From NCBI GenBank assembly GCA_001822075.1, contig MHPK01000006.1, forward strand, positions 124,977 to 183,898: a stretch of 58,922 bases of DNA, written 5' to 3'. The position numbers and the translations under genes are program-made. This DNA comes from Candidatus Staskawiczbacteria bacterium RIFOXYB1_FULL_38_37. Lineage in GTDB: Bacteria; Patescibacteriota; Minisyncoccia; Minisyncoccales; Staskawiczbacteraceae. Shown here piece by piece: positions 1,758 through 55,775 of the stretch (its first letter is position 1; the number at the start of each line of letters is the position of its first letter). The notes under the pieces are model-generated. The model saw only the letters and a program-made list of their open reading frames with translations, was not told where the DNA came from and did not search any database.

Positions 1758-2669
1758 TCAAGTTTGTCGCATTGCCCCCCATTTATACCAGCTGACAAGC
1801 AAGGGGGACGCAATAAATATAGAAGAGTAGGCTCCCGAAGTAATGCCTATTATTAAAGCTAAAGAAAAATATTTTAGGGTTTCTCCTCCAAAAAAGAATA
1901 TGGCAATAAGCACTATTAATGTGCTAAACACCGTGCTCAAAGACCTGCCTAGTGTTTGGTTTAAGCTCCAGTTAACGGTTTCTTCAAACTGGCCCATTCC
2001 CTGCCTTAAAATGTTTTCTCTTATCCTGTCAAAAATAACAATGGTGTCGTGCACAGAAAATCCAAGCACTGTTAAAAGAGCAGCTATAATTGGAATTGTA
2101 ATTTCAACATTATACAACCTTCCCAAAATAGAAAAAACTCCAACGGGAATCAATATGTCGTGAAACAGGGCGATTAAAGAAGCAACTCCATATTTCCACG
2201 AATTTACAGGCCTTGAAACTTTTCTAAAAGCAAAAGCAATGTATAGAGTTATAGCCAGCAAAGCTAAAACAATTGCCAGCTCTGTTTTGTTTCTCAGCTC
2301 CTGGCCCACAGAAGGGCCGATATACTGAAAACTTTTTTCACTGGTTTTGGCAAGCTCATTTAATTTTGCCAATATCTGCTGATGGGTTGCTTCGTCAACG
2401 CCTATAAACTGCAAAATTGCTCCGTTAACTCCAATTGGCTGTATGCTAACCTGGCCCAAACCAAACTGAGAAAGAGCCTGCTCTATTACTTCGTTTGATG
2501 GCCTTTCTCCGCCAGCTGGCGGATTAAACTCAATCTGCATGCTACTGCCGCCCGCAAACTCAATTCCAAATTTTAACCCAAAAATAAACAAAGAAACAAT
2601 CGTGGCCAAAACCAAAATCCCAGAAATTATATAATAGATATTTGAATATTTAGTAAACTGTATGTTCAT
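1758..2669 (-). CDS. secF: protein translocase subunit SecF
   Basis: LKFGIEFAGG, GFSVHDTIVIFDRIRE, QTLGRSL, GAYSSIFIASPLL. Confidence 0.97.
   Translation of the reverse strand: MNIQFTKYSNIYYIISGILVLATIVSLFIFGLKFGIEFAGGSSMQIEFNPPAGGERPSNEVIEQALSQFGLGQVSIQPIGVNGAILQFIGVDEATHQQILAKLNELAKTSEKSFQYIGPSVGQELRNKTELAIVLALLAITLYIAFAFRKVSRPVNSWKYGVASLIALFHDILIPVGVFSILGRLYNVEITIPIIAALLTVLGFSVHDTIVIFDRIRENILRQGMGQFEETVNWSLNQTLGRSLSTVFSTLIVLIAIFFFGGETLKYFSLALIIGITSGAYSSIFIASPLLVSWYKWGAMRQT
2508..2523. repeat. 16-bp perfect palindrome TCCGCCAGCTGGCGGA (family A), in-frame in secF
   Basis: Identical copies at 18014-18029 and 27857-27872. Confidence 0.9.
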
Positions 2670-2677
2670 TTAATTAC

Positions 2678-2781
2678 TAATTTTAAATTTAAAATTTTAA
2701 TTGAATGCCCTAATCTCAAATGTTTAAAACATTCTATCATTTAGATTTCATTTAAAATTTAAAATTTGTTATTTAAAATTT
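2678..2781. repeat. 104-bp AT-rich intergenic repeat, copy 1 (secD-secF spacer)
   Basis: 4 mismatches over 104 bp to 27010-27113; diverged copy near 32168-32268. Confidence 0.9.
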
Positions 2782-4201
2782 ACAAAAGCCATTTAGCTTT
2801 TTCTGTCCACTTTCCTACGAATACCTGCAAAAATATCCTTGTTATAAATATGGCTGAAAACAAACTTATAATAATACCCAAAGCCAAAGTAAAAGCAAAC
2901 CCCTTAATAAATGAAGTTGCCACAAAAAATAAAATGGCGCACACAATCAAAGAATTAAAGTTTGAATCTCGAATAGACGACCAAGCTCTTCTAAACCCCT
3001 CATCAATTGCCTGAGACAAACCTTTTCCAGCTTTTATTTCTTCTTTCATTCTGGCAAAAATAAGAATATTTGCGTCAACTGCCATTCCTATAGAAAGTAT
3101 AAAACCTCCGATGCCAGCCAACGTTAACGTAACAGGAATTAATTTAAACAAAGAAAGCACAATGGCAACATAAATTATTAAAGCAAAAGAGGCTAAGAGC
3201 CCTGGCAGCCTATAAATTAAAACCATAAATACAACCACTGCCAAAAGCCCAAAAATTCCAGCCAGTAAAGATTTCTGCAAAGACGCATATCCTAAAGTAG
3301 GCCCCACGGTTTCTTGCGAAATCGGGCTTCCTATTTTTACAGGCAAAGCTCCAGAATTCAACCTTCTTGCGATTTCATTTGCTTTTTGGGTTGACATGTC
3401 TCCTGTAATAACAGCTTTGCCTCCTGAAATTTTTTCTTGCACGTTGGGAGCGTATAAATCGTTGACGTCAATTTTTCCATCTCCGTTTGTGTCAATAATA
3501 GAGGCTCCGTCAAGAAAAATGGCCAAGCTCTTGTTAACGTTTCTTTCTGTAATTTGTTCAAAAATTTTAGCTCCCTCGTCGTTAAAGCGCAGTTCTATCT
3601 GGGGCTTGTAAGTTGTGGGGTCAAAAATAACATTTGCTTTTGTAAGATATTTTCCTGTTAATTCTGTGGGCTTATAATAAGGATTTTGCAAAGCCAGCTC
3701 CCAGTTTTCAATGCTTGTAATATCTCCCCCCTCGTCCTGAACCGCTTGGACTTCTTTCATTTTATCTATAATCTGCTGGGCTTCCTCGGCTGTCCTTTCT
3801 TCATCAAACTCCAAATACGGAGTTTGGCCTATCATATCAATTGCCTGTTTTACATCTGTAACTCCGGGCAACTCAACTAAAAGCCTGTCTTGGCCCTGAA
3901 TTTGGACAACAGGCTCTGAAACCCCAAACATATTTACTCTTCTTTCAATTACATCTCGCAATCCTGCCATAGCTCCGGATTTATCTTCAACTGAACTCAA
4001 ATCTGCCTGGTAAATAAGCTGGACTCCGCCTTGCAGGTCAAGGCCCAAAATATATGGCTTTTCTGGAAAATGCCAAAGAGTCCAGCCAGCTTTGCTGTTT
4101 AAATAATCAATAGCCTTATTTACATAATTTGGGTATGAAAAAATCCCGGCTAAAACAGCCAAGATTAAAACTGCAATAAAAATATAATATTTCTGCTGCA
4201 T
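2780..4201 (-). CDS. secD: protein translocase subunit SecD
   Basis: LGLDLQGG, IERRVNMFGVSEP, IGMAVDANILIFARMKEE, IKGFAFTL. Confidence 0.97.
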   Translation of the reverse strand: MQQKYYIFIAVLILAVLAGIFSYPNYVNKAIDYLNSKAGWTLWHFPEKPYILGLDLQGGVQLIYQADLSSVEDKSGAMAGLRDVIERRVNMFGVSEPVVQIQGQDRLLVELPGVTDVKQAIDMIGQTPYLEFDEERTAEEAQQIIDKMKEVQAVQDEGGDITSIENWELALQNPYYKPTELTGKYLTKANVIFDPTTYKPQIELRFNDEGAKIFEQITERNVNKSLAIFLDGASIIDTNGDGKIDVNDLYAPNVQEKISGGKAVITGDMSTQKANEIARRLNSGALPVKIGSPISQETVGPTLGYASLQKSLLAGIFGLLAVVVFMVLIYRLPGLLASFALIIYVAIVLSLFKLIPVTLTLAGIGGFILSIGMAVDANILIFARMKEEIKAGKGLSQAIDEGFRRAWSSIRDSNFNSLIVCAILFFVATSFIKGFAFTLALGIIISLFSAIFITRIFLQVFVGKWTEKAKWLL

Positions 4202-7226: not shown

Positions 7227-7796
7227 TTAAAGTTTTTCTAAAATTTTGAGTTCAAGATTATCTGTTTCTGTGTCGTAAATTGCAAAAGTGGGCTTATGAA
7301 ACTGACCCGCCAGCTCGCCTGGATTTATCATTCTGCACTCGCTTCCTCCTTCGCCATTCGGCTTCGGATGGACAAGTATTTTTTCTTCCCCGCTCGCAAC
7401 GCTTCGCGTAGCGATGCGGGCGAGCCATGGTCTGTGCGTGTGGCCATAAAAAACCACGTCAAATTTTCCTGACTGCGCCAATTTTTTTGCCATATCTGGA
7501 AAATGGGTAAAAGCTATTCGTTTTTTATCAATTTCTTTTTCAAAAACATCTTCATTTATTTCAACGCCGGGTATTTTATTATATTCTTCCAGCAAAATCT
7601 TAAAATCCTTGTCCATGTTTCCAAACACTCCAAAAAATTCTCCTTTAAAATCTGCCAGTGATTCTTTTAAGCTTTCCGGGTTTCCAATATCCCCGCAATG
7701 CAAAATTAACTGGATATTTTCTTTATTCAGCCAATCGACAACTTTTTTAAAATTAGCCACATTGCCGTGCGTGTCTGAAATAATTGCAAATTTCAT
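7227..7796 (-). CDS. YfcE/MJ0936-family metallophosphoesterase
   Basis: IISDTHGN, HCGDIG, GNMD, FTHFP, YGHTH, INPG; carries two palindromic in-frame inserts. Confidence 0.92.
   Translation of the reverse strand: MKFAIISDTHGNVANFKKVVDWLNKENIQLILHCGDIGNPESLKESLADFKGEFFGVFGNMDKDFKILLEEYNKIPGVEINEDVFEKEIDKKRIAFTHFPDMAKKLAQSGKFDVVFYGHTHRPWLARIATRSVASGEEKILVHPKPNGEGGSECRMINPGELAGQFHKPTFAIYDTETDNLELKILEKL
7345..7421. repeat. two adjacent GC-rich hairpin elements inside the phosphoesterase ORF (about 7345-7373 and 7389-7421)
   Basis: cctccttcgccattcggcttcggatggac and cccgctcgcaacgcttcgcgtagcgatgcgggc; both fold back and keep the frame. Confidence 0.7.
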
Positions 7797-12331: not shown

Positions 12332-14845
12332 TTAAGCGTTTTTACCATGGCACTTCTTATATTTTTTACCGCTACCGCACGGACACGGATCGTTTCTGCC
12401 GACTTCTTTTTTACCTGCCTGCCCAGGCAGGCCTGCTTCAACAGGTTTAAAATTTAGCATTGGCTTTTGTTGCCGGGGAATGCCGGATTTTAAAATATTT
12501 TCTGCAATGTTGGCATCAAGCATTGATAACAATTGCCCAAATGCTTTGTGCGCTTCATTTTTATATTCCACCAAAGGATCCCTGCCAGCATAAGCCCTTA
12601 ATTTTACAGAGTCTCTGACATGGTCCATGTAAGACAAATGGTCTTGCCATGCTAAATCCAAAACCCGCAAACTTACAGCCCTGCACAGCTGGTTAAAATT
12701 TTCCTCTCCCAATTCTTTTTCTTTCTCGCCCAAAGCCTGCAGAGCAGGCATTGTGGCGGGCCCGTCAAAATGGCTTTGGCTTTTGTCGGGTTTCTCAATT
12801 TTGTTAAAAATTTCCCAAATTTCTGTTTTGGGATTTACAAGAAACGCCATGCGCTTTTTGTAAATAATTTCTCTGTGCTTATTTATTACGTCATCATACT
12901 CTAATAAATGCTTTCTAGCGTCAAAATTAAACCCCTCAATTTTTGTTTGGGCAGATTCAATGGCCCCCGAAACCATGCCCGCTTGTATGGGCTGGTCTTC
13001 TGGCATGTTCAAAGCTGTCATTAAATTTTTTATTTTGTCTCCGCCAAAAATACGCATTAGGTCATCTTCCAAAGAAACAAAAAATTGCGTGGAGCCCGGG
13101 TCGCCCTGCCTGCCAGACCTGCCCCTTAACTGGTTGTCTATTCTTCTTGCGTCGTGCCTTTCTGTGCCAATTACATGAAGGCCGCCTAATTCCTTAACTC
13201 TTCGACCCTGCTCAGGGCTCGGTGGGTTCCCACCGAGAATAATATCAACTCCCCTGCCTGCCATATTAGTTGCAATGGTCACACCCCCTTGCTTTCCTGC
13301 CTGGGCTATAATTTCACCTTCTCTTTCATGATTTTTTGCATTCAATGTATTATGAGGTATGCCTTTTGTTTCTAAAAGCCTGCCAACGTATTCATTTTTT
13401 TCAACAGATCTGGTTCCCACTAAAATCGGCTGGCCTTTTTTGTTCAATTCTTCTATTTCTTTTACAAGAGCTTCAAACTTTCCTTTTTCTGTTTTGTAAA
13501 CTTTGTCAGCAGAATCTTTTCTTATCATTGGCTTGTTTGTAGGAATTGAAACAACTTCCAATTTGTAAACCTTGTCAAACTCTTCAGCTGAAGTTAAGGC
13601 GGTGCCTGTCATGCCAGACAATTTTTTGTACATTCTAAAATAATTCTGAAAAGTAATTGTGGCCATTGTTATTGATTCCGGCTTTACCTCGACTCCTTCT
13701 TTTGCCTCAACTGCTTGATGAAGCCCGGCAGACCAGCGGCGCCCGGGCAAAATTCTGCCTGTGAATTCATCTATAATTAAAATTTCTCCGTTTTTTACAG
13801 TGTAATCTCTGTCTTTCAAAAACAATGTTTTAGCCCTTAAGGCCGACTCTAACTGGTGGGTTGAGGCAATATCATTGTCTAACCACGGGTCAAAGCCCAA
13901 ACTTTTTACAATTTTGTTCTGGCCTTCTTCTGTAAAGGTTGCTGTTTTTAATTTTTCATCAATCTCGTAATCTATGTCTCTTTGCAGAGGAGACACGACT
14001 TTGGCAAACTTATAATATTTTTCCGTTGCTTCTTCGGCCCGCCCGGAAATAATTAACGGCACGCGAGCTTCGTCAATTAAAATTGAGTCAATTTCGTCAA
14101 CTATGGCAAAGTTGTGGCTTCGTTGCGCTTGTTGATTTTGTTCGTATGCCATATTGTCCCGCAAATAATCAAATCCAAATTCATTGTTTGTGCCGTAAGT
14201 AATGTCAGCTGCATAGGCTTCTTTTCTTGAAACCGGCTTTAAAAAATCCTGCACCACTTTAAACCCGCCCAATTCATCGCGCTCTTTGTCTAATTCGTCA
14301 GAATTTTGAATTTTGAATTTTGAATTTGTATAACCAGCATCATAGACATAGCCACTCTCGTTTGTAATACAGCCTACCGTCAAGCCAAGAAAATGATATA
14401 TCTGGCCCATCCAGACAGCATCTCTTTTTGCAAGGTAATCGTTAACAGTAATTATGTGCGCGCCCTTGCCCTCTAATGCATTTAAATATGCGGGCAGAGT
14501 GGCAGATAAAGTTTTTCCCTCTCCGGTTTTCATTTCAGCAATTTTACCCTGATGCAAAACAATTCCGCCAATTAGTTGTGAATCAAAATGGCGCTGGTTC
14601 AAGCTTCTTTTTGAGGCTTCTCTCACCAAAGCAAAAGCCTCTGGAAGAATGTCATCCAGCCCGCCCAAAGCCGCGGCATTGTTGCGGGCAAGCTTTTCTT
14701 TTAACTCGCTCGTTTTTTGCTTTAACTGCTCGTCTGAAAGCTTCTCAAACTCAGGTGAAAGCGAATTTATCTTATCAACTAAAGGCTGGAGGCTTTTGAC
14801 AAATTTTTCATTCGGGTCGCCAAAAATTTTATTAAAAATCGACAT
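12332..14845 (-). CDS. secA: preprotein translocase ATPase SecA
   Basis: EMKTGEGKT, VDEIDSILIDEARVPLIISG, NMAGRGVDI, QLRGRSGRQGDPG, C-terminal GRNDPCPCGSGKKYKKCHG. Confidence 0.99.
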   Translation of the reverse strand: MSIFNKIFGDPNEKFVKSLQPLVDKINSLSPEFEKLSDEQLKQKTSELKEKLARNNAAALGGLDDILPEAFALVREASKRSLNQRHFDSQLIGGIVLHQGKIAEMKTGEGKTLSATLPAYLNALEGKGAHIITVNDYLAKRDAVWMGQIYHFLGLTVGCITNESGYVYDAGYTNSKFKIQNSDELDKERDELGGFKVVQDFLKPVSRKEAYAADITYGTNNEFGFDYLRDNMAYEQNQQAQRSHNFAIVDEIDSILIDEARVPLIISGRAEEATEKYYKFAKVVSPLQRDIDYEIDEKLKTATFTEEGQNKIVKSLGFDPWLDNDIASTHQLESALRAKTLFLKDRDYTVKNGEILIIDEFTGRILPGRRWSAGLHQAVEAKEGVEVKPESITMATITFQNYFRMYKKLSGMTGTALTSAEEFDKVYKLEVVSIPTNKPMIRKDSADKVYKTEKGKFEALVKEIEELNKKGQPILVGTRSVEKNEYVGRLLETKGIPHNTLNAKNHEREGEIIAQAGKQGGVTIATNMAGRGVDIILGGNPPSPEQGRRVKELGGLHVIGTERHDARRIDNQLRGRSGRQGDPGSTQFFVSLEDDLMRIFGGDKIKNLMTALNMPEDQPIQAGMVSGAIESAQTKIEGFNFDARKHLLEYDDVINKHREIIYKKRMAFLVNPKTEIWEIFNKIEKPDKSQSHFDGPATMPALQALGEKEKELGEENFNQLCRAVSLRVLDLAWQDHLSYMDHVRDSVKLRAYAGRDPLVEYKNEAHKAFGQLLSMLDANIAENILKSGIPRQQKPMLNFKPVEAGLPGQAGKKEVGRNDPCPCGSGKKYKKCHGKNA
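12414..12431. repeat. 18-bp palindrome CCTGCCTGCSCAGGCAGG (family B), in-frame in secA
   Basis: Other copies at 16991-17008 and 26924-26941. Confidence 0.9.
12728..12793. repeat. about 66-bp two-hairpin element (family C), in-frame in secA
   Basis: Near-identical copy at 17065-17132 in an unrelated gene. Confidence 0.9.
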
Positions 14846-14932
14846 ATAAGTACCCTTATTCTACATCAAAACCGCCCTTCTGTAAACACACACAACAAAA
14901 CATTGGGAGATATGATCTCCCAATACATTTTA

Positions 14933-14998
14933 TTAAGTTAACACTTGTTAGCCTGTACTTACTATTGCGACGGCTTTTTGCCGTTCGGCAAAAAGCCG
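14933..14998. repeat. 66-bp structured direct repeat, copy 1
   Basis: 59/66 identical to 16139-16204; terminal hairpin shows a compensatory C-G/G-C change. Confidence 0.9.
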
Positions 14999-15026: not shown

Positions 15027-15068
15027 AGGGTCACCGTTAGGGGTAACGTTACCCCTAACGGTGACCCT
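15027..15068. repeat. 42-bp perfect palindrome centred on GTAACGTTAC
   Basis: AGGGTCACCGTTAGGGGTAAC-GTTACCCCTAACGGTGACCCT. Confidence 0.9.
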
Positions 15069-16078: not shown

Positions 16079-16138
16079 AAACCAAAAAACAGGCTCCCCC
16101 GCCCATTTTTTATGGCTCAACCTCGTTGAGCCATATTT

Positions 16139-16204
16139 TTAAGTTAACACTTATTAACCTGCGCTTGCTATTGCGACGGGTTTTTGCCGTTCGGCAAAAA
16201 CCCG
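16139..16204. repeat. 66-bp structured direct repeat, copy 2
   Basis: See 14933-14998. Confidence 0.9.
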
Positions 16205-16248
16205 TCGAATTATGTAACTTCTTTTGGCAATATTAAACTGCTTGCTAT

Positions 16249-16728: not shown

Positions 16729-17490
16729 TTATTTTGCGTTAAGTCTTTTTTGGACGGCTTCACTTTGCAGCTCAGTTAAAGCATTGTTTGCCACCCACTT
16801 GGCTGGCTTTGAATTTATTTTTTGGATTTCTTTGGCAAGCTTTATTGCCTTTTTGTTTAAATTTTTGTTTCTTTTGCCAATCTGGCGCAAAGCCCAGTTT
16901 ACAGCTTTTTTAACAAAATTTCTTTCATCGGTTGAAGCTTTTTTTATCAAAGGAAAAAATTTTAAAAAATCTTTGTCTTTCATTTTTTTACCTGCCTGCG
17001 CAGGCAGGCCATGCACAGCTAAACACGCTATGAGCGTGAAGGCGGTACGTCGTTGAAATTCCCCGCCCAAAGCCTGCGAAGCAGGCATTATGGCGGGCCC
17101 GTCTAAATGCCTTTTAGGCTTTTGTCGGGTTTTGGCCAATTCAAATACCTTTTTATAAATAAAACTTGCCTTATCAAACAAGCTTAAGCAGACCTGGTCA
17201 ACAACATCCCAAGAGTCAAAACCATTGATCCATTTATCCATTTGCTTTTCTGTCAGAAGCCCGGCATCTGCAATAAATCCGGCTAAAATTCTTGCCTCAT
17301 GTATTCCAGAATCAAAAAGTTTTAAAGCTAACTTATGGTCTTTTTTTATAATTTTTGCCAGTTTTCTTAATTCCGGAATCGGAATGCCAAAAACTTTTGT
17401 TTTTGGCCTAATGCCAAACCGCGCCATGCCTTCAGCATTGCGCGGATTCTTTAGAGATTTCAATTTTTTTATAACCTCTGAATAGTTCAT
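16729..17490 (-). CDS. DNA alkylation repair (AlkD-like) protein
   Basis: GIHEARILA, FDSWDVVDQVC, DERNFVKKAVNWALRQIGKRN; carries family B and C inserts. Confidence 0.9.
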   Translation of the reverse strand: MNYSEVIKKLKSLKNPRNAEGMARFGIRPKTKVFGIPIPELRKLAKIIKKDHKLALKLFDSGIHEARILAGFIADAGLLTEKQMDKWINGFDSWDVVDQVCLSLFDKASFIYKKVFELAKTRQKPKRHLDGPAIMPASQALGGEFQRRTAFTLIACLAVHGLPAQAGKKMKDKDFLKFFPLIKKASTDERNFVKKAVNWALRQIGKRNKNLNKKAIKLAKEIQKINSKPAKWVANNALTELQSEAVQKRLNAK

Positions 17491-18194
17491 TGCCAGACTG
17501 TATCAATTTTTGCTTTTTCTTCTGATTTTATAATCCACTTATCTTTATCTTGCGTAATAACAGCTTTGTCTGCTGTCCATATTCTTGATTTTTCCAAATC
17601 GCCAAATAAAATCACGTGTTCTTCTTTATCATCTAACGGGTTGTCAACTGACGCGCAAGCATAATAAGCAAGTTTTCCTTGTATAACAGGCCTTATGCCT
17701 GTAAAAGGCCTGCAATAAGACCCGTCTTCTAATTTTAGAAACCATGCCCAATTATCTTGCGTAAAATCCAGCAAAGAAGGCTGGGGCAATGGCTTTTCAA
17801 GCTCTATTAAAAAAGATTCTGGAGTTAAGGGGTTTGGCTGGCAAAAAACAAAAGCTGGGTCTTGCGTTTCAAAACACGGGTCAAAAATTTCATTTTTAAC
17901 TTGGCACCTAAAAGCATCCGGACGAAATGGGTCAGCTATAGAATATGAAAAGCATTCTCCTTGCTTTTTTTGCTGGGGTAAAACTTCAGGAATGCTAAAA
18001 GCTATTATATTAGTCCGCCAGCTGGCGGATTCTTTTACTGCATTTGAAATTCCAGAAAAAGAGGTGTTTTCTGATTGCGAAAAGCTTTCAGATTTTACTG
18101 CAAAATAAAAAAAGGCTATGCTAAGCGCTAAAATAATCAGCACTGCAAAAATGGTGATGACAATTGTTGATATAGAATGTCCTTTTTTGCTCAT
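17487..18194 (-). CDS. membrane-anchored Cys-containing hypothetical protein
   Basis: N-terminal TM; CFSYSIADPFRPDAFRC...DPCF; contains family A palindrome. Confidence 0.6.
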   Translation of the reverse strand: MSKKGHSISTIVITIFAVLIILALSIAFFYFAVKSESFSQSENTSFSGISNAVKESASWRTNIIAFSIPEVLPQQKKQGECFSYSIADPFRPDAFRCQVKNEIFDPCFETQDPAFVFCQPNPLTPESFLIELEKPLPQPSLLDFTQDNWAWFLKLEDGSYCRPFTGIRPVIQGKLAYYACASVDNPLDDKEEHVILFGDLEKSRIWTADKAVITQDKDKWIIKSEEKAKIDTVWQ

Positions 18195-19086: not shown

Positions 19087-22000
19087 TTACTCGCCCCAGT
19101 GAAGCATTAAAATAGCCATATCATATTCATCAATCTTTCCGTCATTATTTAAGTCAGCTGGCATAGAGCTATCTGTCTGGCCCCAAACAGATAACATTAA
19201 AGCAAGGTCTTGGTCGTCTACATTGCCATCGCGGTTGATATCGCCTATTTTTGCCACAGAAAAGGCTGCAGAAATTGTGTGATTTCCAGTTACATGCTCA
19301 AAAAAGTAAGAATCGACCGGACCAATAGAAATGCCGTCAACCAGCACATCTTTAATTTTATAAGCTTTGCTGGGCTCTATGCTAAAAAACTGACTGCTTA
19401 GAAACTGCACATGCACTTCGCCCAGCGGAGTCATAGACCCGCCTTCTCCGTGAGAAGCCAAAATTGTTGAATAATAGTTTACGCCCATAATTCCTGCGCC
19501 ATTTCCCGAAGTTTGCTCTGTCTGGCAGGTTGAAGAGCAGCCGTCTCCACCTGAAGTGTTTCCGTCATCGCACTGCTCGTCCGATTCCACGGCGCTATTT
19601 CCGCAAACAGGCTCTTCTGGTTGTGGATCTGCATGGCAGCTGTCATCGTACCAGTAGAAGCCAGCTGATTCGCAGTCTTCTTGGTTGTTATAATCTTCTG
19701 GCTGTGGCGGCACATATGGCAATTCATGGCAACTATTATTATACCAATAGAAACCAGCATTCTCGCAGTCTTCTTGATTATTGTAATCTTCTGGATTTGC
19801 AGGTGTTTCTGTTTGGCATGTTGAAGAGCAGCCGTCTCCGTTTGAAGTGTTTCCGTCATCGCACTGCTCGTCCGATTCCACGGCGCTATTTCCGCAAACA
19901 GGCTCTTCTGGTTGTGGATCTGCATGGCAGCTGTCATCGTACCAGTAGAAGCCAGCTGATTCGCAGTCTTCTTGGTTGTTATAATCTTCTGGCTGTGGCG
20001 GCACATATGGCAATTCATGGCAACTATTATTATACCAATAGAAACCAGCATTCTCGCAGTCTTCTTGATTATTGTAATCTTCTGGATTTGCAGGTGTTTC
20101 TGTTTGGCATGTTGAAGAGCAGCCGTCTCCGTTTGAAGTGTTTCCGTCATCGCACTGCTCATCTGTTTCCAATATATTATTTCCGCAAACAGGCGCAAAA
20201 CCGCAGCTGTCATTCAAACTGCCAGGCGTCCCAAGGTCTCCTAATCCATAGGGGGTTGTTGAAACGCACCAATTAGCGCCCACATTATTATCTAAAGCAG
20301 GATTTCCTAAAATTGTTGAAGCGCCAGTTGGGTCAGGGAATTCTGCGCCTCCGTCATAGTCTACTCTGTCAATTTCTGCGCTGTTGCAATCAAGTATAAT
20401 AGAGTCGCTTGCATTGCCAAGAGTCGTATTAGAATAAACATAATCTGGATTCAGCCCTCCGTTCAGGCTATAGTTTCCGTTTTTGGCAAAAACAGCATAA
20501 CCATTGGCTGATAAAATAAGCGATGTAATAGTATGAAGATTATTTAATTCATCTTTTATAACGCATCCTGATAAGTCAATATCATAATTTGTTGTGTTAT
20601 ACAGCTCAAACCATTCTCCATAAGTGTCCGAAACAGCGCCTGGATCCTGCATTATTTCATTTATCACAACATATCCGGGTTCTGGAGCTACAGGCTCCTC
20701 AGGATTCGGCTCTGCGTGGCAAGAATCATCATACCAATAGAAACCTGCATTCTCGCAGTCTTCTTGATTATTGTAATCTTCTGGATTTGCAGGTGTTTCT
20801 GTTTGGCATGTTGAAGAGCAGCCGTCTCCGTTTGAAGTGTTTCCGTCATCGCACTGCTCATCTGTTTCCAATATATTATTTCCGCAAACAGGCGCAAAAC
20901 CGCAGCTGTCATTCAAACTGCCAGGCGTCCCAAGGTCTCCTAATCCATAGGGGGTTGTTGAAACGCACCAATTAGCGCCCACATTATTATCTAAAGCAGG
21001 ATTTCCTAAAATTGTTGAAGCGCCAGTTGGGTCAGGGAATTCTGCGCCTCCGTCATAGTCTACTCTGTCAATTTCTGCGCTGTTGCAATCAAGTATAATA
21101 GAGTCGCTTGCATTGCCAAGAGTCGTATTAGAATAAACATAATCTGGATTCAGCCCTCCGTTCAGGCTATAGTTTCCGTTTTTGGCAAAAACAGCATAAC
21201 CATTGGCTGATAAAATAAGCGATGTAATAGTATGAAGATTATTTAATTCATCTTTTATAACGCATCCTGATAAGTCAATATCATAATTTGTTGTGTTATA
21301 CAGCTCAAACCATTCTCCATAAGTGTCCGAAACAGCGCCTGGATCCTGCATTATTTCATTTATCACAACATATCCGGGTTCTGGAGCTACAGGCTCCTCA
21401 GGATTCGGCTCTGCGTGGCAAGAATCATCATACCAATAGAAACCTGCATTCTCGCAGTCTTCTTGATTATTGTAATCTTCTGGATTTGCAGGTGTTTCTG
21501 TTTGGCATGTTGAAGAGCAGCCGTCTCCGTTTGAAGTGTTTCCGTCATCGCACTGCTCGCTTTCATCTAAAATTTCATTTCCGCAAACAGAAAAATAATT
21601 TGCAAAATCTTTTTCTGTTGAATTTTCTCCCTGGGACAATGTTAAAGCATAAAATCCTTCTGAAGGATAAGTTTGCAGCCATCCATTTTGATTTGTTTCT
21701 GAAATTGTATAACTGCCTGCCTCCAATCCTGCAAATGCATAAAATCCGTTTTCGTCTGTAGTCTGGGTTGCTGACGCGTCTCCAGACAAAACAATTTCCC
21801 AGCCATGCAAAGCTTCTTCTCCATCATCAATTTCTCCGTTATTATTTAAATCATTGTATTTATATCCTGAAATTGAAGCATATTGGCATATATCAGTTGA
21901 AATTTCCTGATAAATGCCTTCTAATCCGTCTCCATTTGAGGCATGGTGGTAATCTGCTCCTGTAATATCAGCTATATCTTGCAACATTGTTTCATTAATA

Positions 22001-22731
22001 TCAGAATTACTTCCCAACCCTATTGTAAATATCTTATAACCCAAATTTCCAGCTTCTGTTGCTTTTTGTATTGCATAAGCAACATCGTCAGAGTCTTCCC
22101 CGGAACCTAAACCGTTTGGCCTATTTGCCTTGCCGTCTGTTAATAAAATAATTGTTTTGGCTGCCTGGAGATTTGCATTCCCATTAAATTCCGCAATTGC
22201 AAATGAAATTGCGTCTCCAATATTTGTTGCCCCGCCCGTTACAGCAGAATCAATAGAATCAATAGCTGTTTTTGTGACGTTATGGTCTGAAGAAAGGCTT
22301 TTTGCCAGTTGGGCTGTGTCTGAAAAAGTAATCAAGCCCGACTGGTCTTGCGATTTTAAATTATCTAAAAATGATTTTGCTGCTGCTTTCGCTGACTCTA
22401 TTTTAGAAGGCGCAGGCGCCGTATATGCGGGCGAGCCGCACTGGATAGTGTCTGGTTTTGCTAAACATTCCTCTTCTGATAAACTGTCTTGGCTGTGGCC
22501 GACGCATTGCATGCTAGAATCAACCCATTCAAGCTCTTTCCAATTGCACTGGCTCTGGCTCCCCCCGTCTTCCATGCTGCCCGAAACATCCAAAACTAAA
22601 ATAACATCAACATCAACCTGGCACATATTGGCGCCTTCTGCCAATGCAATATTTTTAGGAAATAAAAAACCGGCCATCAGCATGCTGATAATCAGCCACA
22701 AAGCGGCCGTAAAATTTAAAAATGGCTTCAT
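19087..22731 (-). CDS. large secreted adhesin-like protein: vWA, SdrD-B-like, Cys-rich repeats, 2x lamin-tail domain, dockerin
   Basis: DVSGSM and LLTDG (vWA MIDAS); GYKYNDLNNNG (SdrD-B-like); CGN...EQCDDGN...GDGCSSTC repeats; VVINEIMQDP (LTD); GDINRDGNVD...ADLNNDGKID (dockerin). Confidence 0.85.
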   Translation of the reverse strand: MKPFLNFTAALWLIISMLMAGFLFPKNIALAEGANMCQVDVDVILVLDVSGSMEDGGSQSQCNWKELEWVDSSMQCVGHSQDSLSEEECLAKPDTIQCGSPAYTAPAPSKIESAKAAAKSFLDNLKSQDQSGLITFSDTAQLAKSLSSDHNVTKTAIDSIDSAVTGGATNIGDAISFAIAEFNGNANLQAAKTIILLTDGKANRPNGLGSGEDSDDVAYAIQKATEAGNLGYKIFTIGLGSNSDINETMLQDIADITGADYHHASNGDGLEGIYQEISTDICQYASISGYKYNDLNNNGEIDDGEEALHGWEIVLSGDASATQTTDENGFYAFAGLEAGSYTISETNQNGWLQTYPSEGFYALTLSQGENSTEKDFANYFSVCGNEILDESEQCDDGNTSNGDGCSSTCQTETPANPEDYNNQEDCENAGFYWYDDSCHAEPNPEEPVAPEPGYVVINEIMQDPGAVSDTYGEWFELYNTTNYDIDLSGCVIKDELNNLHTITSLILSANGYAVFAKNGNYSLNGGLNPDYVYSNTTLGNASDSIILDCNSAEIDRVDYDGGAEFPDPTGASTILGNPALDNNVGANWCVSTTPYGLGDLGTPGSLNDSCGFAPVCGNNILETDEQCDDGNTSNGDGCSSTCQTETPANPEDYNNQEDCENAGFYWYDDSCHAEPNPEEPVAPEPGYVVINEIMQDPGAVSDTYGEWFELYNTTNYDIDLSGCVIKDELNNLHTITSLILSANGYAVFAKNGNYSLNGGLNPDYVYSNTTLGNASDSIILDCNSAEIDRVDYDGGAEFPDPTGASTILGNPALDNNVGANWCVSTTPYGLGDLGTPGSLNDSCGFAPVCGNNILETDEQCDDGNTSNGDGCSSTCQTETPANPEDYNNQEDCENAGFYWYNNSCHELPYVPPQPEDYNNQEDCESAGFYWYDDSCHADPQPEEPVCGNSAVESDEQCDDGNTSNGDGCSSTCQTETPANPEDYNNQEDCENAGFYWYNNSCHELPYVPPQPEDYNNQEDCESAGFYWYDDSCHADPQPEEPVCGNSAVESDEQCDDGNTSGGDGCSSTCQTEQTSGNGAGIMGVNYYSTILASHGEGGSMTPLGEVHVQFLSSQFFSIEPSKAYKIKDVLVDGISIGPVDSYFFEHVTGNHTISAAFSVAKIGDINRDGNVDDQDLALMLSVWGQTDSSMPADLNNDGKIDEYDMAILMLHWGE

Positions 22732-25340: not shown

Positions 25341-25601
25341 TTATTGCTCTACAATGCACCTTACTTCATTATTGGGCTTTACTTCAAGAAATCCTGATTT
25401 CACCGGAAAAAAATGCTCCCTTGGTCCTGAGCTTGTCGAAGGATTTGCCTCTACAACTTTTATAATTCCCGCAGTTAAAACTCCAATAAAAGTTTCGTGA
25501 TTGTCTAAAACAGTTATCTCTCCCATAATTGTTTTGCAATTTAAAAGCCGCGCTTCGCCCTGAAACAAAACTTTTTTTAATGAATAGATAGACAGCTTCA
25601 T
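25341..25601 (-). CDS. atpC: ATP synthase epsilon subunit (short, N-terminal domain only)
   Basis: GEITVLDNHETFIGVL..G; follows atpD. Confidence 0.85.
   Translation of the reverse strand: MKLSIYSLKKVLFQGEARLLNCKTIMGEITVLDNHETFIGVLTAGIIKVVEANPSTSSGPREHFFPVKSGFLEVKPNNEVRCIVEQ
25425..25443. repeat. family E element (CCTTCGAC-N-GCTCAGG), in-frame in atpC
   Basis: Encodes PSTSSG; related copies at 35943-35960 and 47619-47637. Confidence 0.75.
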
Positions 25602-25608
25602 AAAATTA

Positions 25609-27112
<1,504 letters not shown>

Positions 27113-27113
<1 letters not shown>

Positions 27114-28090
27114 TAGCTAAGCGCTTCGGCTCCCGCGCTTATCTCGCTTATTTCTGTTGTTATTCTGGCTTGGCGCGATTTATTATATTGTAAATTTAAT
27201 TTATTTCCCAAATCAGATGCGTTATCCGAAGCTGTTTTCATTGCCATTCTTCTGGCTGAATGTTCTGAAGCATTGGCCTCTAAAATTAAATGGTAAATTT
27301 GCATAAAAAATAAATGCTCCGCCAATTTTTCTAAAACTTTTTCCGGCTCGGGCTCAATAGTATATTCTTTTAATTTATTTTTATCTAAAGTAAAAGTTAT
27401 ATTGTGCTCTTTTATCAAGTCGGCAAACTTTCCGCGCTCGGGTATTATTTGTTTAATTGTGTCGGCTATATGACTGTAATCAATTGGCAAAACCCTTCTT
27501 ACATGGGGCTCCTGCTTTAAAGCAGACCTAAAATGCGTTGAAACAATAATTACTCTATCAAAATCTTTGTTTAAATAACCTTTTATTAAAAAATCAAACA
27601 ACGGCCTCACCTGCTCGGGAGTTGTATAATCTCCGGCTTCAACAAACTTTCTTAGTACCGTGGACTGGTCTACGGTACTGAACTTTTTTAAAAGATAATT
27701 ATATGCTTTTTCCCCGACTGCCGCAAAAACTTTTTCTTCATTTTCGTGCTTTTTATCTTCTTTAATATGCTTTTCAAATTTTTTAAAAACCGAACTGTTA
27801 AATGCTCCTGCCAATCCCTTGTCAGAAGAAACCAAAACAAATAAAACTTTTTTTATTCCGCCAGCTGGCGGATTTCTCCTGTCTTCAAACAACGGAGGCA
27901 GTTTTTGGTCTTCTAAGCTTGAAATCGTTGCCAAAAAATCTAATGCCGCAAAAGCATACGGCCTGGAGTCCAAAGCAATCTGCTGGGATTTTCTCATTTT
28001 TGTAGCCGAAACCAGCTCCATTGCTTTGGTAATTTGTCCTATGTTATTTACGCTTTTTAAACGTTTTTTGATATTCTGCGGTGATTCCAT
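27113..28090 (-). CDS. atpG: ATP synthase gamma subunit
   Basis: ITKAMELVSATK, SSDKGLAGAFN, ASEHSARRMAMKTASDNA, NKSRQARITTEI. Confidence 0.98.
27654..27679. repeat. 26-bp near-perfect palindrome in-frame in atpG (family F)
   Basis: AGTACCGTGGACTGGTCTACGGTACT, encodes STVDQSTV. Confidence 0.7.
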
Positions 28091-28098
28091 AATTAATT

Positions 28099-28148
28099 TT
28101 TATATCATTTTATCAACCACTTGACAACAGCCCTGTATTTGCTATACT
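28099..28148. promoter_or_regulatory. overlapping divergent promoters upstream of atpG (44-bp core repeated at 28498-28541)
   Basis: Minus: TTGTCA-17-TATAAA ending 8 bp before the atpG ATG; plus: TTGACA-16-TATACT. Confidence 0.6.
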
Positions 28149-28258
28149 TAACTTGCTGATATGAACCGTATAATTACGGGTCAAATCGGGTGTCAAACAA
28201 AGAGGATTCCGAAAGGGGTCTTTTTTGTTTGATAAATTTTCTGTGATATAATCAATTC

Positions 28259-28345: not shown

Positions 28346-28423
28346 AAAAATCTGTCATTTCCTGACGGATTTTTTGTTTAACTTTGTTTAATGTCGGGAC
28401 TTTTTTTATATTTTTAATTTGCC

Positions 28424-28602: not shown

Positions 28603-29094
28603 TTATTTGCCCTCTAACTTTCTTCGCTGGGTATCTAAATATAATAATGGTGTATTCTGTCTTCGTAATAAATAAGAACATTTATTGCTCGGTGATACAA
28701 CAGACAAAAGTGCTTTTTTATTTTTCAAAAATTCAACGAGCTCGGCATAATCCCCATCACTTGAAACAATAACTGCTTTGTCATATTTCTTTTCATAAAA
28801 ACCAGAAACTGCATCCAAAACAAGTATGGCGTCACAATTGCCCTTAACGGTTCCAACATCATCATAGCTTACTTGTTTATAAGTTAGAATAAACCCACAC
28901 TCCTGTAAGTATTTATAGAGTTCTTTGTATTTTGGAACCAATCCCAAAAATAAATAAGCTGTCTTAATTTCATATTTTTCTGCCAGCCAAACTCTAAATC
29001 TTTTATAATCCAATTTCCAACCCAAACTCGTAGTTCCTCTATGCAGGTTTGCTCCGTCAATATATGCAAAATTGTTTTCTTTCTTATTTTCCAT
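28603..29094 (-). CDS. NYN (LabA/DUF88) domain protein
   Basis: AYIDGANL, KGNCDAILVLDA, IVSSDGDYAELV. Confidence 0.92.
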   Translation of the reverse strand: MENKKENNFAYIDGANLHRGTTSLGWKLDYKRFRVWLAEKYEIKTAYLFLGLVPKYKELYKYLQECGFILTYKQVSYDDVGTVKGNCDAILVLDAVSGFYEKKYDKAVIVSSDGDYAELVEFLKNKKALLSVVSPSNKCSYLLRRQNTPLLYLDTQRRKLEGK

Positions 29095-29130: not shown

Positions 29131-29209
29131 TAGTATATAGGCTCGATTTAGCACTTTCCCATCACTCGTAGGCAGCTACGCCTTAAAATAGCGAAAGAGG
29201 ATCAAAGCC

Positions 29210-29410
29210 ATGTCAGGTATGAGTATGTTCCCGTCGTGGATTGGGATGGTTCCCAATGTCGTTATACAAATCGTCGTCACGTGCCCTGTCTGCTATGTGG
29301 AGTTTGCTCTGACAGGAGCGAAGTTGCGATGCCCAAACGAACATCTATACCCCAACGCAGAGGAGGCTCTTCGCAAGGCGGCGAAGGATCAAAGCAAAGA
29401 CGACAAATAA
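29210..29410 (+). CDS. small Zn-ribbon-like hypothetical protein
   Basis: CPVC...CPNEH; GAGG RBS, consensus promoter upstream, terminator near 29443-29468. Confidence 0.55.
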   Translation: MSGMSMFPSWIGMVPNVVIQIVVTCPVCYVEFALTGAKLRCPNEHLYPNAEEALRKAAKDQSKDDK

Positions 29411-29466
29411 GTCGTCGCGACCCGAGTATGTGGCTAACTGCTCCCCAACACATGTTGGGCTTTTTT

Positions 29467-32158: not shown

Positions 32159-32167
32159 TTTTTTAAA

Positions 32168-32268
32168 AATTTTAAATTCTCAATTTTAAATTTTAAATGA
32201 AATATTTAATTTTAAAACATTTAATCATTCAAAATTGATTTAAAATTTGTTATTTATAATTTAAAATT
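32168..32268. repeat. diverged AT-rich intergenic repeat (atpB-atpE spacer)
   Basis: Shares TTTTAAATTCT and TAAAATTTGTTATTTA ends with copies 1 and 2; boundaries approximate. Confidence 0.6.
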
Positions 32269-32276
32269 AATATTAT

Positions 32277-36225: not shown

Positions 36226-36326
36226 GGTACCTTTAACTTTTCTCTTTCTTATATTTATCCTATCAAAAAACCGCTCCCCCAGCCCTTGAAAATTTTGTTT
36301 TTGTTTAGTAATATAAAATTACACAT

Positions 36327-36631
36327 TCCGGTGTAGCTCAGCGGTAGAGCGACTCCCTGTGAAATAAGTATTGCAGCCTTCCACAGCAATGTGGAATGGA
36401 AAAACGAGGTGAATTCGGGGAAGTCCCGACGATGTCGCGGATAATCCCGAGCCAAGCCACGATTTTAAAAAAATCGCGGGAAGGTGTAGAGACTATCCTT
36501 TTTAGGAGTAGTCCCATCAAACGGGACGAAGCGCCTCGCACCCTTTAAGGGTGATGATATAGTCCACCCCCAATGGCAACATAGGGATAAGTGTAAGGAG
36601 TGGGTCGTAGGTTCGAATCCTACCACCGGAG
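36327..36631 (+). tRNA. trnN: tRNA-Asn(GTT) interrupted by an intron (exons 36327-36360 and 36594-36631)
   Basis: Joined exons give a canonical cloverleaf TCCGGTG/CACCGGA, anticodon loop CT-GTT-AA, G73; CCA not encoded. Confidence 0.93.
36361..36593 (+). ncRNA. 233-nt group I intron at tRNA position 35/36
   Basis: 5' exon ends in U, intron ends in G; core elements AATTCGGGGAA (P), AATCCCGAGC (Q), GTAGAGACTA (R), GATATAGTCC (S); no ORF. Confidence 0.9.
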
Positions 36632-36644
36632 CAAAGTGGGATTT

Positions 36645-36667
36645 GCCCCGCCAACGGCGGGGCTTTT
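36645..36667 (+). terminator. intrinsic terminator after tRNA-Asn
   Basis: GCCCCGCC-AAC-GGCGGGGC-TTTT. Confidence 0.8.
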
Positions 36668-36671
36668 CTCT

Positions 36672-53916: not shown

Positions 53917-53917
53917 T

Positions 53918-55732
53918 TTAATATTCTAAATAAGTTTCTAAAAATCCGTATCCTCCGATATGAATGTCATTTATTACTTTTGTCTGGTAGCCTGGCATAG
54001 AAATTATTATTTGGTAAGTATCTGAAGGCAAAAGCTCGGTGAATATAACCTGGCCTGGAGTGAAACAGCCAGAAATATAATTTAAATTAATGTTTGCTAA
54101 AACCGGAGTCTTGGAAGGGTCTTCTGTTGAAAGAAAAACCTTATAGCGCGCATAACGTTCGTTATTGTGGGCAGAGCTAATTGTAGCTCCAGGAACAGCA
54201 TAATAAGTTGAGCTTGTGCCGTCAGGGCCCAAAAAATTCCACGTTAAATTATCATTGTTTGTGGCAATCTGAAATTTAAGGCTTGCTGAAGGGTCCTGGG
54301 AGGCCGGCTGCCAATTCAAGGTTGTATAAGCTGTCAAATCAGTCCCTGTATCAAAAGTTGAAGATATCAAATAACCTGAAGCAACATAAAGGCCCCCATT
54401 TTCTGCGAGTTCTATGCCAGATGGCGCCGAATTATTTATATTTCCATCATCATCAAAATATCTTGCGGCATTAACAAAATCTTCCTGGCCTGAACCTCCT
54501 GACCAATCTTGCTGGCTCCAAACGTTTCCTCCTGTTATTTTTTCCATATTTACCGCAGGACTTGAGTTCACTAATTGCACTACAGCTCCCTCTATAGGGC
54601 TTTCTGTTGCAGAATCTTTCACTAAAACCAGCAAACTATTATTGGTTTTCGGCCCGAGTATCAAGCTGAAATTCTGGTTAATACCCGGCAACACAGAAGC
54701 TGGCTGGACAGGAGAAGTGCCGTAAACCATATAAGAACTTTCTTTCAATGTTGGAGTGTAATCATCCCATTCAATATCTTCTATCAAAACTTTTCCAATT
54801 GAATTTGAGGTGTAATCATTATCAAATTTTAAAACGTCAGGAGTGCCTATGAGCTTTGCGCCTTTGACATTAATTTCAACTCCTGAGATCGGCTGGCAAG
54901 CCTGGTCTTGCGTATTAAAAGATAAATCGCTCAATTGGTCGATTGAAAAACTGATATGAGTAACCTGGCCATTTGAAATAGTGGAGTCTGGTTTTATGGG
55001 ATTTGGGTTTTCTGGAGTAATAGAATAGGTCTGGTCTGAAGAAAAATTATCTTTTGTAGCTTCAATATGATATCCATTTACAGAATCTGGCAGACCCACT
55101 TCAATCCAATTTCCATTAGAATCGGCTGTTCTCGTAAGGTCAACATTTGGCTCAAGCAGGGTATTGATAATATGTATTTGAGCTCCGGGCACAGGTTCGC
55201 CCACAGAATTAAAAACTTCAATGGAAAGCGCTCCCCCGCTGTCCAAATCTTCTAAATTTTTGGGAACAACATTTGTTAAAAAACTATTTTCTCTGCCAGA
55301 ACCAATTGTTTTAATATAAAGCTTTACCTGCTTATAATCATTGGGGGCAGGGTCTGTGCCTAATAAAATAGTTCCGTCAGCCGGGTCGTCAATATAATTT
55401 ACCACATAATAAATTTGGTAATCTTTATTATCAAAAAAAATGTTAAGGGCATTGGGCAAATCCGGCAGATTGCCAGGGGGATTTCCGTTTACAGTGCCAA
55501 CTTGCGAATAAGGCAAATTACGAACGACTTCAAGGTACTGGCCAGCTAAAGAAGATATTGTTGTGCGCTCGCGGTAATATGCAATTCCGTTTATCATGGA
55601 AGTAAAAATCGCATATATTCCAGAACACAAAATAGCCACTATAGCCACAGCAACCAATATCTCAACAAGGGTAAACCCCGTTAGAAGTTTGCCGTCTTTA
55701 AAATATTTTTTTTTGGTTATTAAAAACTTCAT
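53918..55732 (-). CDS. large prepilin-type protein with carboxypeptidase-regulatory-like beta domains
   Basis: GFTLVEILVAVAI; PVPGAQIHI, PIEGAVV. Confidence 0.8.
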   Translation of the reverse strand: MKFLITKKKYFKDGKLLTGFTLVEILVAVAIVAILCSGIYAIFTSMINGIAYYRERTTISSLAGQYLEVVRNLPYSQVGTVNGNPPGNLPDLPNALNIFFDNKDYQIYYVVNYIDDPADGTILLGTDPAPNDYKQVKLYIKTIGSGRENSFLTNVVPKNLEDLDSGGALSIEVFNSVGEPVPGAQIHIINTLLEPNVDLTRTADSNGNWIEVGLPDSVNGYHIEATKDNFSSDQTYSITPENPNPIKPDSTISNGQVTHISFSIDQLSDLSFNTQDQACQPISGVEINVKGAKLIGTPDVLKFDNDYTSNSIGKVLIEDIEWDDYTPTLKESSYMVYGTSPVQPASVLPGINQNFSLILGPKTNNSLLVLVKDSATESPIEGAVVQLVNSSPAVNMEKITGGNVWSQQDWSGGSGQEDFVNAARYFDDDGNINNSAPSGIELAENGGLYVASGYLISSTFDTGTDLTAYTTLNWQPASQDPSASLKFQIATNNDNLTWNFLGPDGTSSTYYAVPGATISSAHNNERYARYKVFLSTEDPSKTPVLANINLNYISGCFTPGQVIFTELLPSDTYQIIISMPGYQTKVINDIHIGGYGFLETYLEY

Positions 55733-55775
55733 TGTTTTTCTGCGATGTTGTTGTCTTGCAAACTTCTAACGGGGT
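55675..55775. repeat. 18-bp perfect inverted repeat (family D arms) enclosing the pilin start codon
   Basis: ACCCCGTTAGAAGTTTGC at 55675-55692 and GCAAACTTCTAACGGGGT at 55758-55775. Confidence 0.9.

Follow-up and report, generated by a model that had tools for sequence, protein, structure and literature searches.

Short GC-rich hairpin families inserted in frame into conserved genes of a Candidatus Staskawiczbacteria genome are probably miniature mobile-type DNA

Repetitive extragenic palindromic (REP) sequences tagged by GTAG or CGTC, including the Rickettsia palindromic elements (RPEs) RPE-4 and RPE-6, can reside within genes (Di Nocera et al., 2013; PMC3733652), palindromic GC clusters occur in the mitochondria of yeast and others (Wu and Hao, 2015; PMC4478555), and Ssn nucleases, which are GIY-YIG enzymes, cut single-stranded DNA (ssDNA) beside flanking SRM/NTS hairpins (Chenal et al., 2025; PMC11893778). 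A stretch of 58,922 nt from Candidatus Staskawiczbacteria bacterium RIFOXYB1_FULL_38_37 (MHPK01000006.1, 124,977-183,898, forward strand), in the following called the window, probably holds several families of very short GC-rich hairpins which are miniature mobile-type DNA of the REP, RPE and GC-cluster kind. The hairpins are DNA insertions into conserved genes that add 5-20 extra loop residues in frame, and the same 18-mers occur across Patescibacteria phyla and in Bacteroidota. Their GC content is 0.67-0.78 as opposed to 0.30-0.43 for the window, in which the genes are densely packed and encoded in the majority on the minus strand.

The families were located by a scan for perfect GC-rich hairpins together with a repeat search of the window. 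Families A (AATCCGCCAGCTGGCGGA) and B (CCTGCCTGCGCAGGCAGG) are exact, orientation-free palindromes of 18 nt. Three exact copies of A (TCCGCCAGCTGGCGGA, with TT always next) start at 2508, 18014 and 27857, where 0.08 are expected from shuffled sequences, and three copies of B start at 12414, 16991 and 26924, where shuffling predicts 0.00. Family C, with units of 35-80 nt, comprises two long copies of about 80 nt, composed of an A-rich head and an imperfect hairpin, at approximately 12717-12793 and at 17052-17132, and a third, short member in the N-terminal part of secA (14655-14689) which is newly added to the family. A 2-nt indel shifts the 5' parts of the long copies into different frames (KPDKSQSHFDG… vs TRQKPKRHLDG…); as about 80 nt are shared in spite of the different frames, the similarity resides at the level of the DNA and is not peptide conservation. 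All nine window copies of A, B and C are single and lie within open reading frames (ORFs), every host ORF remains open, and A, B and C-short are free of stop codons in all six frames. Each of these unrelated families reaches a density of about one copy per 15-20 kb, and a comparison with Rfam found a known RNA at none of the elements in the window.

Identical window proteins are present in 83-102 blocks of the assembly collection, among them GCA_001820555.1 contig MHPY01000022.1 from Rifle groundwater and a 127-kb JGI contig, and as the same proteins recur in many assemblies, the assembly is reproducible and the inserts are no artefacts. The nearest named SecA and AlkD homologues equally derive from Candidatus Staskawiczbacteria. 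Another 9.3 kb of the same genome contains one further exact copy of A and a variant of B. Both are on L358, 6-7 kb to the left of the window, where the A copy (17832) is intergenic, right behind the stop codon of a gene for a TrwB-like ATPase, and the B variant (18346), with two mismatches, is inside that gene.

Alignments of the host proteins with 50-120 orthologues reveal clean indels at nine host positions, with 5-20 extra residues each; for the phosphoesterase and secF, L203, a relative with 75-83% identity, served as the reference at the DNA level. Within the ATP synthase genes, the B copy of atpD (26924..26941) is read as DLPAQAG (aa 20-26), a clean insertion of 7 aa that faces a gap in 80 orthologues, the DNA being TCAGA-B-AGAAGGA and accordingly made up of 18 nt and a 3-nt repeat. 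The A copy of atpG (27857..27874) is read as NPPAGG (aa 73-78), faces a gap in about 70 orthologues as a clean 6-aa insertion and, in an alignment with PDB structures, follows the N-terminal helix and precedes the first strand. A singleton, GC-richer insertion of 21 nt in atpC (25428..25448, minus strand), read as ANPSTSS, forms a weak hairpin with a folding energy of -4.3 kcal/mol and adds 7 aa within a hairpin loop as compared with about 60 orthologues.

Three inserts are carried by secA. The B copy CCTGCCTGCCCAGGCAGG (12414..12431, one mismatch), an 18-nt insert in the C-terminal linker read as GLPGQAG, adds 6 aa, is missing in the nearest relatives P0003, P0008 and P0010 and has a same-site copy in P0002 and P0004-6. 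C-long (12717..12793, minus strand), read as KPDKSQSHFDGPATMPALQALGEK, adds 12 to 15 aa in the helical scaffold region, and C-short GCCCGCAACAATGCCGCGGCTTTGGGCGGGC (14655..14689, minus strand), read as ARNNAAALGG in the N-terminal domain, adds 5 aa after residue 52. The AlkD-like gene combines C-long (17052..17132, minus strand; TRQKPKRHLDGPAIMPASQALGG), which contributes 20 aa, with a B copy (16991..17008) read as GLPAQAG (aa 161-167), which contributes 6 aa, both in comparison with about 119 orthologues; 27 nt including flanks are common to the B copies of secA and the AlkD-like gene. Compared with L203, secF has acquired a clean 18-nt A insertion (TCCGCCAGCTGGCGGATT, 2508..2525, an exact repeat read as NPPAGG, aa 49-54; +6 aa) beside a separate 6-nt indel, and the gene for a Metallophos_2 phosphoesterase a clean singleton hairpin of 36 nt (7392..7427, minus strand) read as LARIATRSVASG, which adds 12 aa and has a folding energy of -18.8 to -23.7 kcal/mol.

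The AlphaFold model of the AlkD-like protein has a mean predicted local distance difference test score (pLDDT) of 87.9 and exactly two weak segments, both of which are inter-helix coils and both of which are the inserts, with a pLDDT below 50 across residues 124-141 of the C-long insert. According to this model, the inserts are disordered loops between helices.

Not every palindrome of the window is of this kind. The secA palindrome at 13218..13237 encodes LGGNPPS, which is conserved in all aligned SecA homologues, and the hairpin at 17687-17712 in an uncharacterized membrane ORF (17487..18194) encodes CSPFTGTRP, conserved in the orthologues; both are native sequence. The PilB hairpin at 57592-57634 is presumably native as well, its motif being one of that family. 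In the pilin gene, an inverted repeat with 24-nt arms, 22/24 complementary (55669..55781, minus strand; arms 55669-55692 and 55758-55781), encloses the ribosome-binding site, the start codon and the first 13 codons and may be a stem for translational control; its inner arm encodes GFTL and overlaps the Pfam N_methyl prepilin motif of that sequence, so that the arm at 55669-55692 was rejected as an insertion. Family D, a 73-nt repeat with a 12-bp hairpin and stop codons in four frames, is intergenic upstream of secA (14926..14998) and in a second copy (16132..16207), as is a perfect 42-nt palindrome (15027..15068) that carries stop codons and is unrelated in sequence to the pilin arms. Unlike A, B and C-short, family D and the 42-nt palindrome thus occur in intergenic positions only and contain stop codons.

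A first-pass annotation made from the sequence of the window had proposed at least six palindrome families inside ORFs, always in frame and without stops, as insertions in secF, secA, atpC, atpD, atpG, the phosphoesterase gene, the AlkD-like gene, a membrane protein gene and a pilin gene. Its proposal that identical copies recur in unrelated genes is borne out beyond chance by the three copies each of A and B and the two of C-long, and the alignment with orthologues it had recommended yielded clean in-frame indels for A, B, C and the singletons and native sequence at 13218 and 17687. The number of families was too high: A, B, C and the phosphoesterase and atpC inserts endure, but three to four of the items proved to be native sequence, and neither D nor E occurs other than between genes. 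Every host ORF is indeed open, and freedom from stops in six frames applies to A, B and C-short, whereas D carries stops. Insertion holds for the first seven genes named, is not demonstrable for the A copy of the membrane protein gene and was rejected for the pilin arm. The idea that families D and E occur both inside and between genes had to be abandoned, the pilin arm being the GFTL motif and the 42-nt palindrome a different sequence, and the suggestion that the inserts are tolerated in loops and add peptide sequence agrees with the AlkD-like model and the atpG alignment.

Beyond this genome, a collection of species-representative genomes contains exact B in at least 120 stretches and the exact 18-nt A in at least 119, counts which are lower bounds and compare with about 9-17 expected for a random 18-mer according to our own arithmetic. 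The carriers are diverse Patescibacteria (WWE3, Microgenomates, Saccharibacteria, Parcubacteria, Berkelbacteria, Dojkabacteria), Bacteroidota including the cultured isolates Litoribacter, Pedobacter and Aquiflexum, Elusimicrobia and others. A and B are specific neither to a lineage nor to this genome. In the other genomes, confident placement in long ORFs was possible for 43/125 B copies and 52/136 A copies, whose frames are strongly biased. In unambiguous long ORFs of genomes with less than 45% GC, B is read as LPAQAG, PACAGR and CLRRQ in the proportion 31:7:0 (chi-square p = 9e-10), and A is read in unambiguous long ORFs as PPAGG, RQLA and SASWR in the proportion 35:11:6 (p = 1e-6). Since a palindrome has no orientation, such a bias can only stem from selection on the encoded peptide, which indicates that the elements are translated and not skipped. 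The residues around LPAQAG are typical of loops, with G, D, S or N ahead and K or E behind, and the intragenic positions of A and B have no shared relation to gene starts or ends. A tRNA lies within 500 nt of 11/125 B copies, where about 4% are expected, and of 8/136 A copies, a modest enrichment. Phages were considered as a vector: among IMG/VR contigs, B is present in 25 and A in eight, above chance, and the cassette context described below in none, Patescibacteria fragments being often misfiled as viral. Many A copies in other genomes stand at the centre of AT-rich palindromes made of short tandem repeats, which are similar to the 111-nt repeat of the window described below.

Certain sites are filled repeatedly. 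At the site AKG|ET of Staskawiczbacteria SecA, C-short is found in four scattered lineages and B in another one, and no fewer than five further GC-rich inserts of small size are known there; the site is filled in P0006, P0086 and P0054 and, by B, in P0059. At the AlkD site H(D/N)|KK, B-like units are present in three lineages, P0157 and P0145 having been struck independently. The strains L203 and L204 are 99.6% identical across 13.7 kb, with a 21-nt C-short in secA as the sole internal indel, and this indel is located in a 155-nt patch; of the 54 substitutions, 26 fall into that patch, and another patch of mosaic character is found at a distance of 400 nt. The location of the indel inside a patch rich in substitutions marks the polymorphism as an imported allele and not as a transposition event. 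Different GC-rich in-frame inserts of their own, up to about 40 aa, occur in atpG of L170, in atpD of L129 and in SecA of P0008, P0043, P0064, P0067 and P0070; in-frame GC-rich inserts in conserved proteins are general among Patescibacteria. In L070 (7385-7415) and L227 (6009-6040), small hairpins are nested exactly in the middle of B (CCTGCCTGC, 21-22 nt, GCAGGCAGG), which recalls the self-nesting of GC clusters and of cyanobacterial small repeats.

Non-coding B copies in other genomes point to a possible enzyme partner. Five of the first 125 B copies have identical flanks, which are the 5' part of tRNA-Gln, and a targeted scan retrieved the exact junction of tRNA-Gln nt 1-11, B and nt 12-25 in 34 species. 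The complete cassette continues after nt 12-25 with 5-35 nt, a GIY-YIG ORF of about 80 aa and an intact tRNA-Gln; in the cassette of a Nomurabacteria genome (L027), the nuclease comprises 81 aa. In 23 of 39 junction loci an intact GIY-YIG ORF, with B 10-35 nt upstream, directly follows the junction and is itself followed by the intact tRNA-Gln, the remaining loci being decayed or truncated; a metagenome scan that permitted 0-18 nt at the junction matched five contigs, all five with exactly B. In a Cyclobacteriaceae metagenome-assembled genome (L303), A stands on both sides of a Pfam-confirmed GIY-YIG gene (PF01541), and tandem modules of A, the 3' part of tRNA-Met and a terminator are arranged behind the tRNA-Met gene. 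The nearest solved structures of the cassette protein are the UPF0213 proteins BH0048 and EF2693. In L038, L367, L372, L377 and L380, B splits the D-arm of a complete second tRNA-Gln next to the intact one, and the interrupted tRNA-Gln of L038 is recognized by ARAGORN only once B is removed.

Spread of the hairpins as miniature mobile-type DNA would begin with the rare copying of a hairpin to a new site. Homologous recombination would subsequently shift filled and empty alleles among related strains, which would account for a given site being occupied in several scattered lineages, and purifying selection would spare copies that are a multiple of three long, free of stops in the host frame, read in the mildest frame (LPAQAG, NPPAGG) and located in tolerant loops. 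As most insertions in a gene-dense genome hit genes, the survivors would appear to be 'always in frame'. The trans-acting enzyme could tentatively be a small single-domain GIY-YIG nuclease of about 80-90 aa (UPF0213/Ssn-like), the best candidate, which is ranked first because B is located at the junction of the tRNA-Gln cassette, A flanks the tRNA-Met cassette and the layout is as in Ssn; enzyme-free template switching or conversion ranks next and a REP-associated tyrosine transposase (RAYT) third, all of them candidates only as far as this genome is concerned. Rather doubtful is the extended proposal that a clade of GIY-YIG proteins of about 80 aa, spread over Patescibacteria and Bacteroidota in tRNA-targeting mini-cassettes, has A, B and perhaps C as its cognate recognition hairpins and, acting in trans on ssDNA, would install the hairpin of 18 nt by itself at new sites.

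Several observations weigh against mobile-type DNA or its assignment to a GIY-YIG enzyme. Direct repeats of 2-3 nt are present at four of five junctions and absent in secF, so that there is no consistent target-site duplication, and the C copies in secA partly substitute native residues instead of purely adding to them. The A copy of the membrane ORF (18014..18031), an exact repeat read as (E)SASWRT, shows no indel and aligns gap-free to ESVSWRT, ESAGLRT and ESAEPQT of the orthologues; it was rejected as a demonstrable insertion and appears to be old or converted. No transposition event was seen, the lone polymorphism at strain level being explained by recombination, and translation of the elements is deduced from the frame bias. 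Pfam annotation of most window ORFs of at least 80 aa detected neither a transposase nor a GIY-YIG gene, as the first-pass annotation had maintained for mobilizing enzymes in general; apart from an NYN-domain cassette, no gene with a nuclease fold was seen, and a PIF1 helicase is encoded as well. Only about 4% of the B copies are found in a GIY-YIG context, the linkage of A to such a gene is confined to one genome, and the SRM pattern HGTCWYN(0-2)YYVSBRHN(0-5)WNVSBRGN(0-2)RNCYNB has no match in the window, with 0.03 in shuffles; by inspection, the cassette junction is likewise devoid of the SRM sequence.

Of the alternatives, the one that dispenses with a dedicated enzyme is somewhat unlikely: template switching or ectopic gene conversion at microhomologies would 'paste over' existing sequence, palindromes being favoured by their folding at replication forks, and homologous recombination between strains would follow. 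The short direct repeats at four of the five junctions, the partial replacement of secA residues by C and the same-length A copy of the membrane ORF are in line with this, as are the 27 nt common to the secA and AlkD-like B copies with their flanks, the recombination patch around the polymorphic element and the hairpins nested in the middle of B, but it is left unexplained why exact units of 18 nt recur between unrelated flanks at hundreds of loci across many phyla, and why B keeps a fixed place in the junction of the GIY-YIG cassette at 39 loci. Selected functional sites, such as sites for DNA uptake, protein binding or methylation or regulatory RNA hairpins, are a quite improbable substitute for selfish DNA. 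Patescibacteria are thought to depend on DNA uptake. Uptake sequences, too, occur in frame within genes with a frame bias, and recombination tracts carry an element; the motifs, however, originate as insertions and not as substitutions, belong to several unrelated families of low copy number with about one per 15-20 kb each, and are the same in unrelated phyla at ORF positions unrelated to gene starts and ends. Chance or native palindromes in GC-richer codons, which do apply to the three items at 13218, 17687 and 57592, can practically be dismissed for A, B, C and the phosphoesterase and atpC inserts on account of the shuffles and the orthologue indels.

A RAYT (Y1 HUH, IS200-like) encoded elsewhere in the genome that moves REP elements or their doublets (REPINs), the precedent put forward in the first-pass annotation, is unlikely as the mechanism. 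Intragenic REPs are documented (PMC3733652), six Pfam-confirmed Y1_Tnp candidates were counted in 1.67 Mb of A/B loci as compared with one in 1.35 Mb of control loci, and two of these genes are located 171-196 nt from a B copy. Those two genes (L029, L031) were rejected as cognate enzymes, since each is flanked on both sides by palindromes of its own (GTGAGCGATATCGGATATCGCTCAC; CTTAGAGGTGACACCTCTAAG) and not by B, and Pfam annotation of most window ORFs of at least 80 aa shows no Y1_Tnp gene. Furthermore, neither GTAG nor CGTC, the heads by which tagged REPs are defined, is present in the flanks of any A or B copy of the window or of 44 coding B copies from other genomes, and identical 18-mers across phyla are unlike the lineage-specific pairs of REP and RAYT. 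An origin of the palindromes as fused terminal inverted repeats of gene cassettes was also rejected, as no gene-bearing element bounded by A or B half-sites was present in 3.2 Mb of loci, where the half-site search yielded just small hairpins nested inside B; a miniature inverted-repeat transposable element was discarded for the same reason and for the lack of a constant target-site duplication.

An NYN-domain gene with a PIN-like nuclease fold (28603..29094) is located between atpA and atpG (region 28091-29551), where the 3' end of atpA and the leader of atpG are tandemly duplicated (28411-28498 matches 29464-29551, 88 nt; 28096-28144 matches 28493-28541, 49 nt). Each duplicate is split by an insert, either the NYN gene or a 266-nt piece with a hairpin resembling a tRNA T-arm (28316-28347), and the region has the appearance of an atp operon into which a gene cassette was inserted with duplication of the target. 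The spacer of secD and secF (2671-2781) contains an AT-rich, intergenic repeat of 111 nt that is 95% identical to one in the spacer of atpG and atpD (27003-27113), with a weaker third copy at 32159-32269. A group I intron (Rfam RF00028, 72.9 bits) at 36289-36670 directly adjoins a downstream tRNA 3' half with T-arm and acceptor and a terminator, and is preceded by a G-rich GGGGTCAGG repeat; ARAGORN finds no tRNA at this locus, even after in silico removal of the intron, and the locus may be an intron-split or degraded tRNA. The gene of a VWA/LTD surface protein (19087-22731) contains tandem repeats of 291 nt and 699 nt and encodes 1214 aa here, whereas its product has 884 aa in two further assemblies of this organism; the length differing among assemblies, it varies between populations.

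Patescibacteria have tiny, gene-packed genomes, yet the F1Fo ATP synthase, SecA and SecDF tolerate repeated in-frame hairpins. Non-homologous inserts, which return at hot spots and are moved by recombination, are thus part of the alignments and marker-gene phylogenies of this huge radiation. The hairpins also exemplify how selfish DNA survives with almost no intergenic space, by being free of stops in six frames, a multiple of three long and read in the mildest frame. They may bear on what spreads untagged and CGTC-type palindromes, and the pairing of B, and once of A, with cassettes offers an enzyme-hairpin pair open to direct test, which could also find use as a tool for cutting ssDNA in a sequence-specific manner, an application proposed for Ssn enzymes. 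If A and B were indeed the recognition hairpins of a GIY-YIG clade, a perfect palindrome of 18 nt would be a complete non-autonomous mobile element, and in-frame 'protein-decorating' repeats, also those of the Rickettsia type, would be tied to Ssn-type nucleases and not to transposases.

RPE-1, which Ogata and colleagues reportedly described in 2000, is said to be a selfish palindrome that has entered conserved proteins of a reduced genome in frame and is tolerated at their surface, and it is not known to have a mobilizing enzyme. The palindromes of the window similarly lie in frame in conserved proteins and are absent from orthologues; they are set apart by length and host, RPE-1 measuring roughly 100-150 nt and being restricted to Rickettsia, whereas the elements here measure 18-80 nt and belong to Patescibacteria. 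In Nostocaceae, Elhai and colleagues are said to have reported in 2008 hairpin units of 21-27 nt that look mobile and insert into genes and into each other. Those small repeats differ in sequence and phylum, and no nuclease partner is known to have been proposed for them.

Intragenic REPs are likewise palindromes, of 20-40 nt, which are read through as extra residues in housekeeping ORFs and of which disruptive copies are removed by selection, those of the CGTC type being without a dedicated transposase (Di Nocera et al., 2013; PMC3733652). The GTAG or CGTC head is missing from A and B, which are exactly 18 nt long, free of orientation and unchanged across phyla, and of which a considerable proportion is intragenic in these gene-dense genomes, while the REPs of that survey are mostly intergenic. 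REPINs and their RAYTs share with them the spread of short hairpin repeats in trans and their maintenance as genomic families (Bertels and Rainey, 2011; PMC3116915), but the mobile unit there is a REP doublet, the elements are extragenic, and each family goes with a RAYT gene that has the matching REP in its flanks, none of which was seen for A and B. Mitochondrial GC clusters resemble the hairpins in being GC-rich palindromes of an AT-rich compact genome, in their turnover of presence and absence and in their exchange by recombination, as with L203 and L204, a likeness of behaviour and not of descent; co-conversion of flanks, merging and nesting have been reported for them, with the mechanism unresolved there (Wu and Hao, 2015; PMC4478555). 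They differ in being organellar, and GC42 comprises 42 nt, has an AG target duplication and is mostly found outside coding sequence.

The Ssn systems provide the closest arrangement for the cassettes, in which a single-domain GIY-YIG gene of about 80-100 aa is immediately adjoined by a GC-rich hairpin (B) or flanked by one on either side (A), the hairpin being at the same time a repeat dispersed in many copies, and the stem-loop resembles the dRS3/NTS core of the Ssn system (…GCGCAGGC…). In contrast to Ssn, the SRM consensus (HGTCWY…) has no counterpart here, the cassettes are located in duplicated tRNA fragments, and NTS is rarely intragenic (2%; Chenal et al., 2025; PMC11893778). A literature search found no description of the A and B motifs, of their peptides or of in-frame hairpins in Patescibacteria. 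In-frame palindromes in housekeeping genes, as represented by RPEs and intragenic REPs (PMC3733652), and GC-rich palindromic mobile DNA (PMC4478555) are already known; new, as far as the literature was searched, are untagged palindromes of exactly 18 nt that extend across phyla, a quantified frame bias and the fixed link of B, and once of A, to tRNA-targeting GIY-YIG cassettes.

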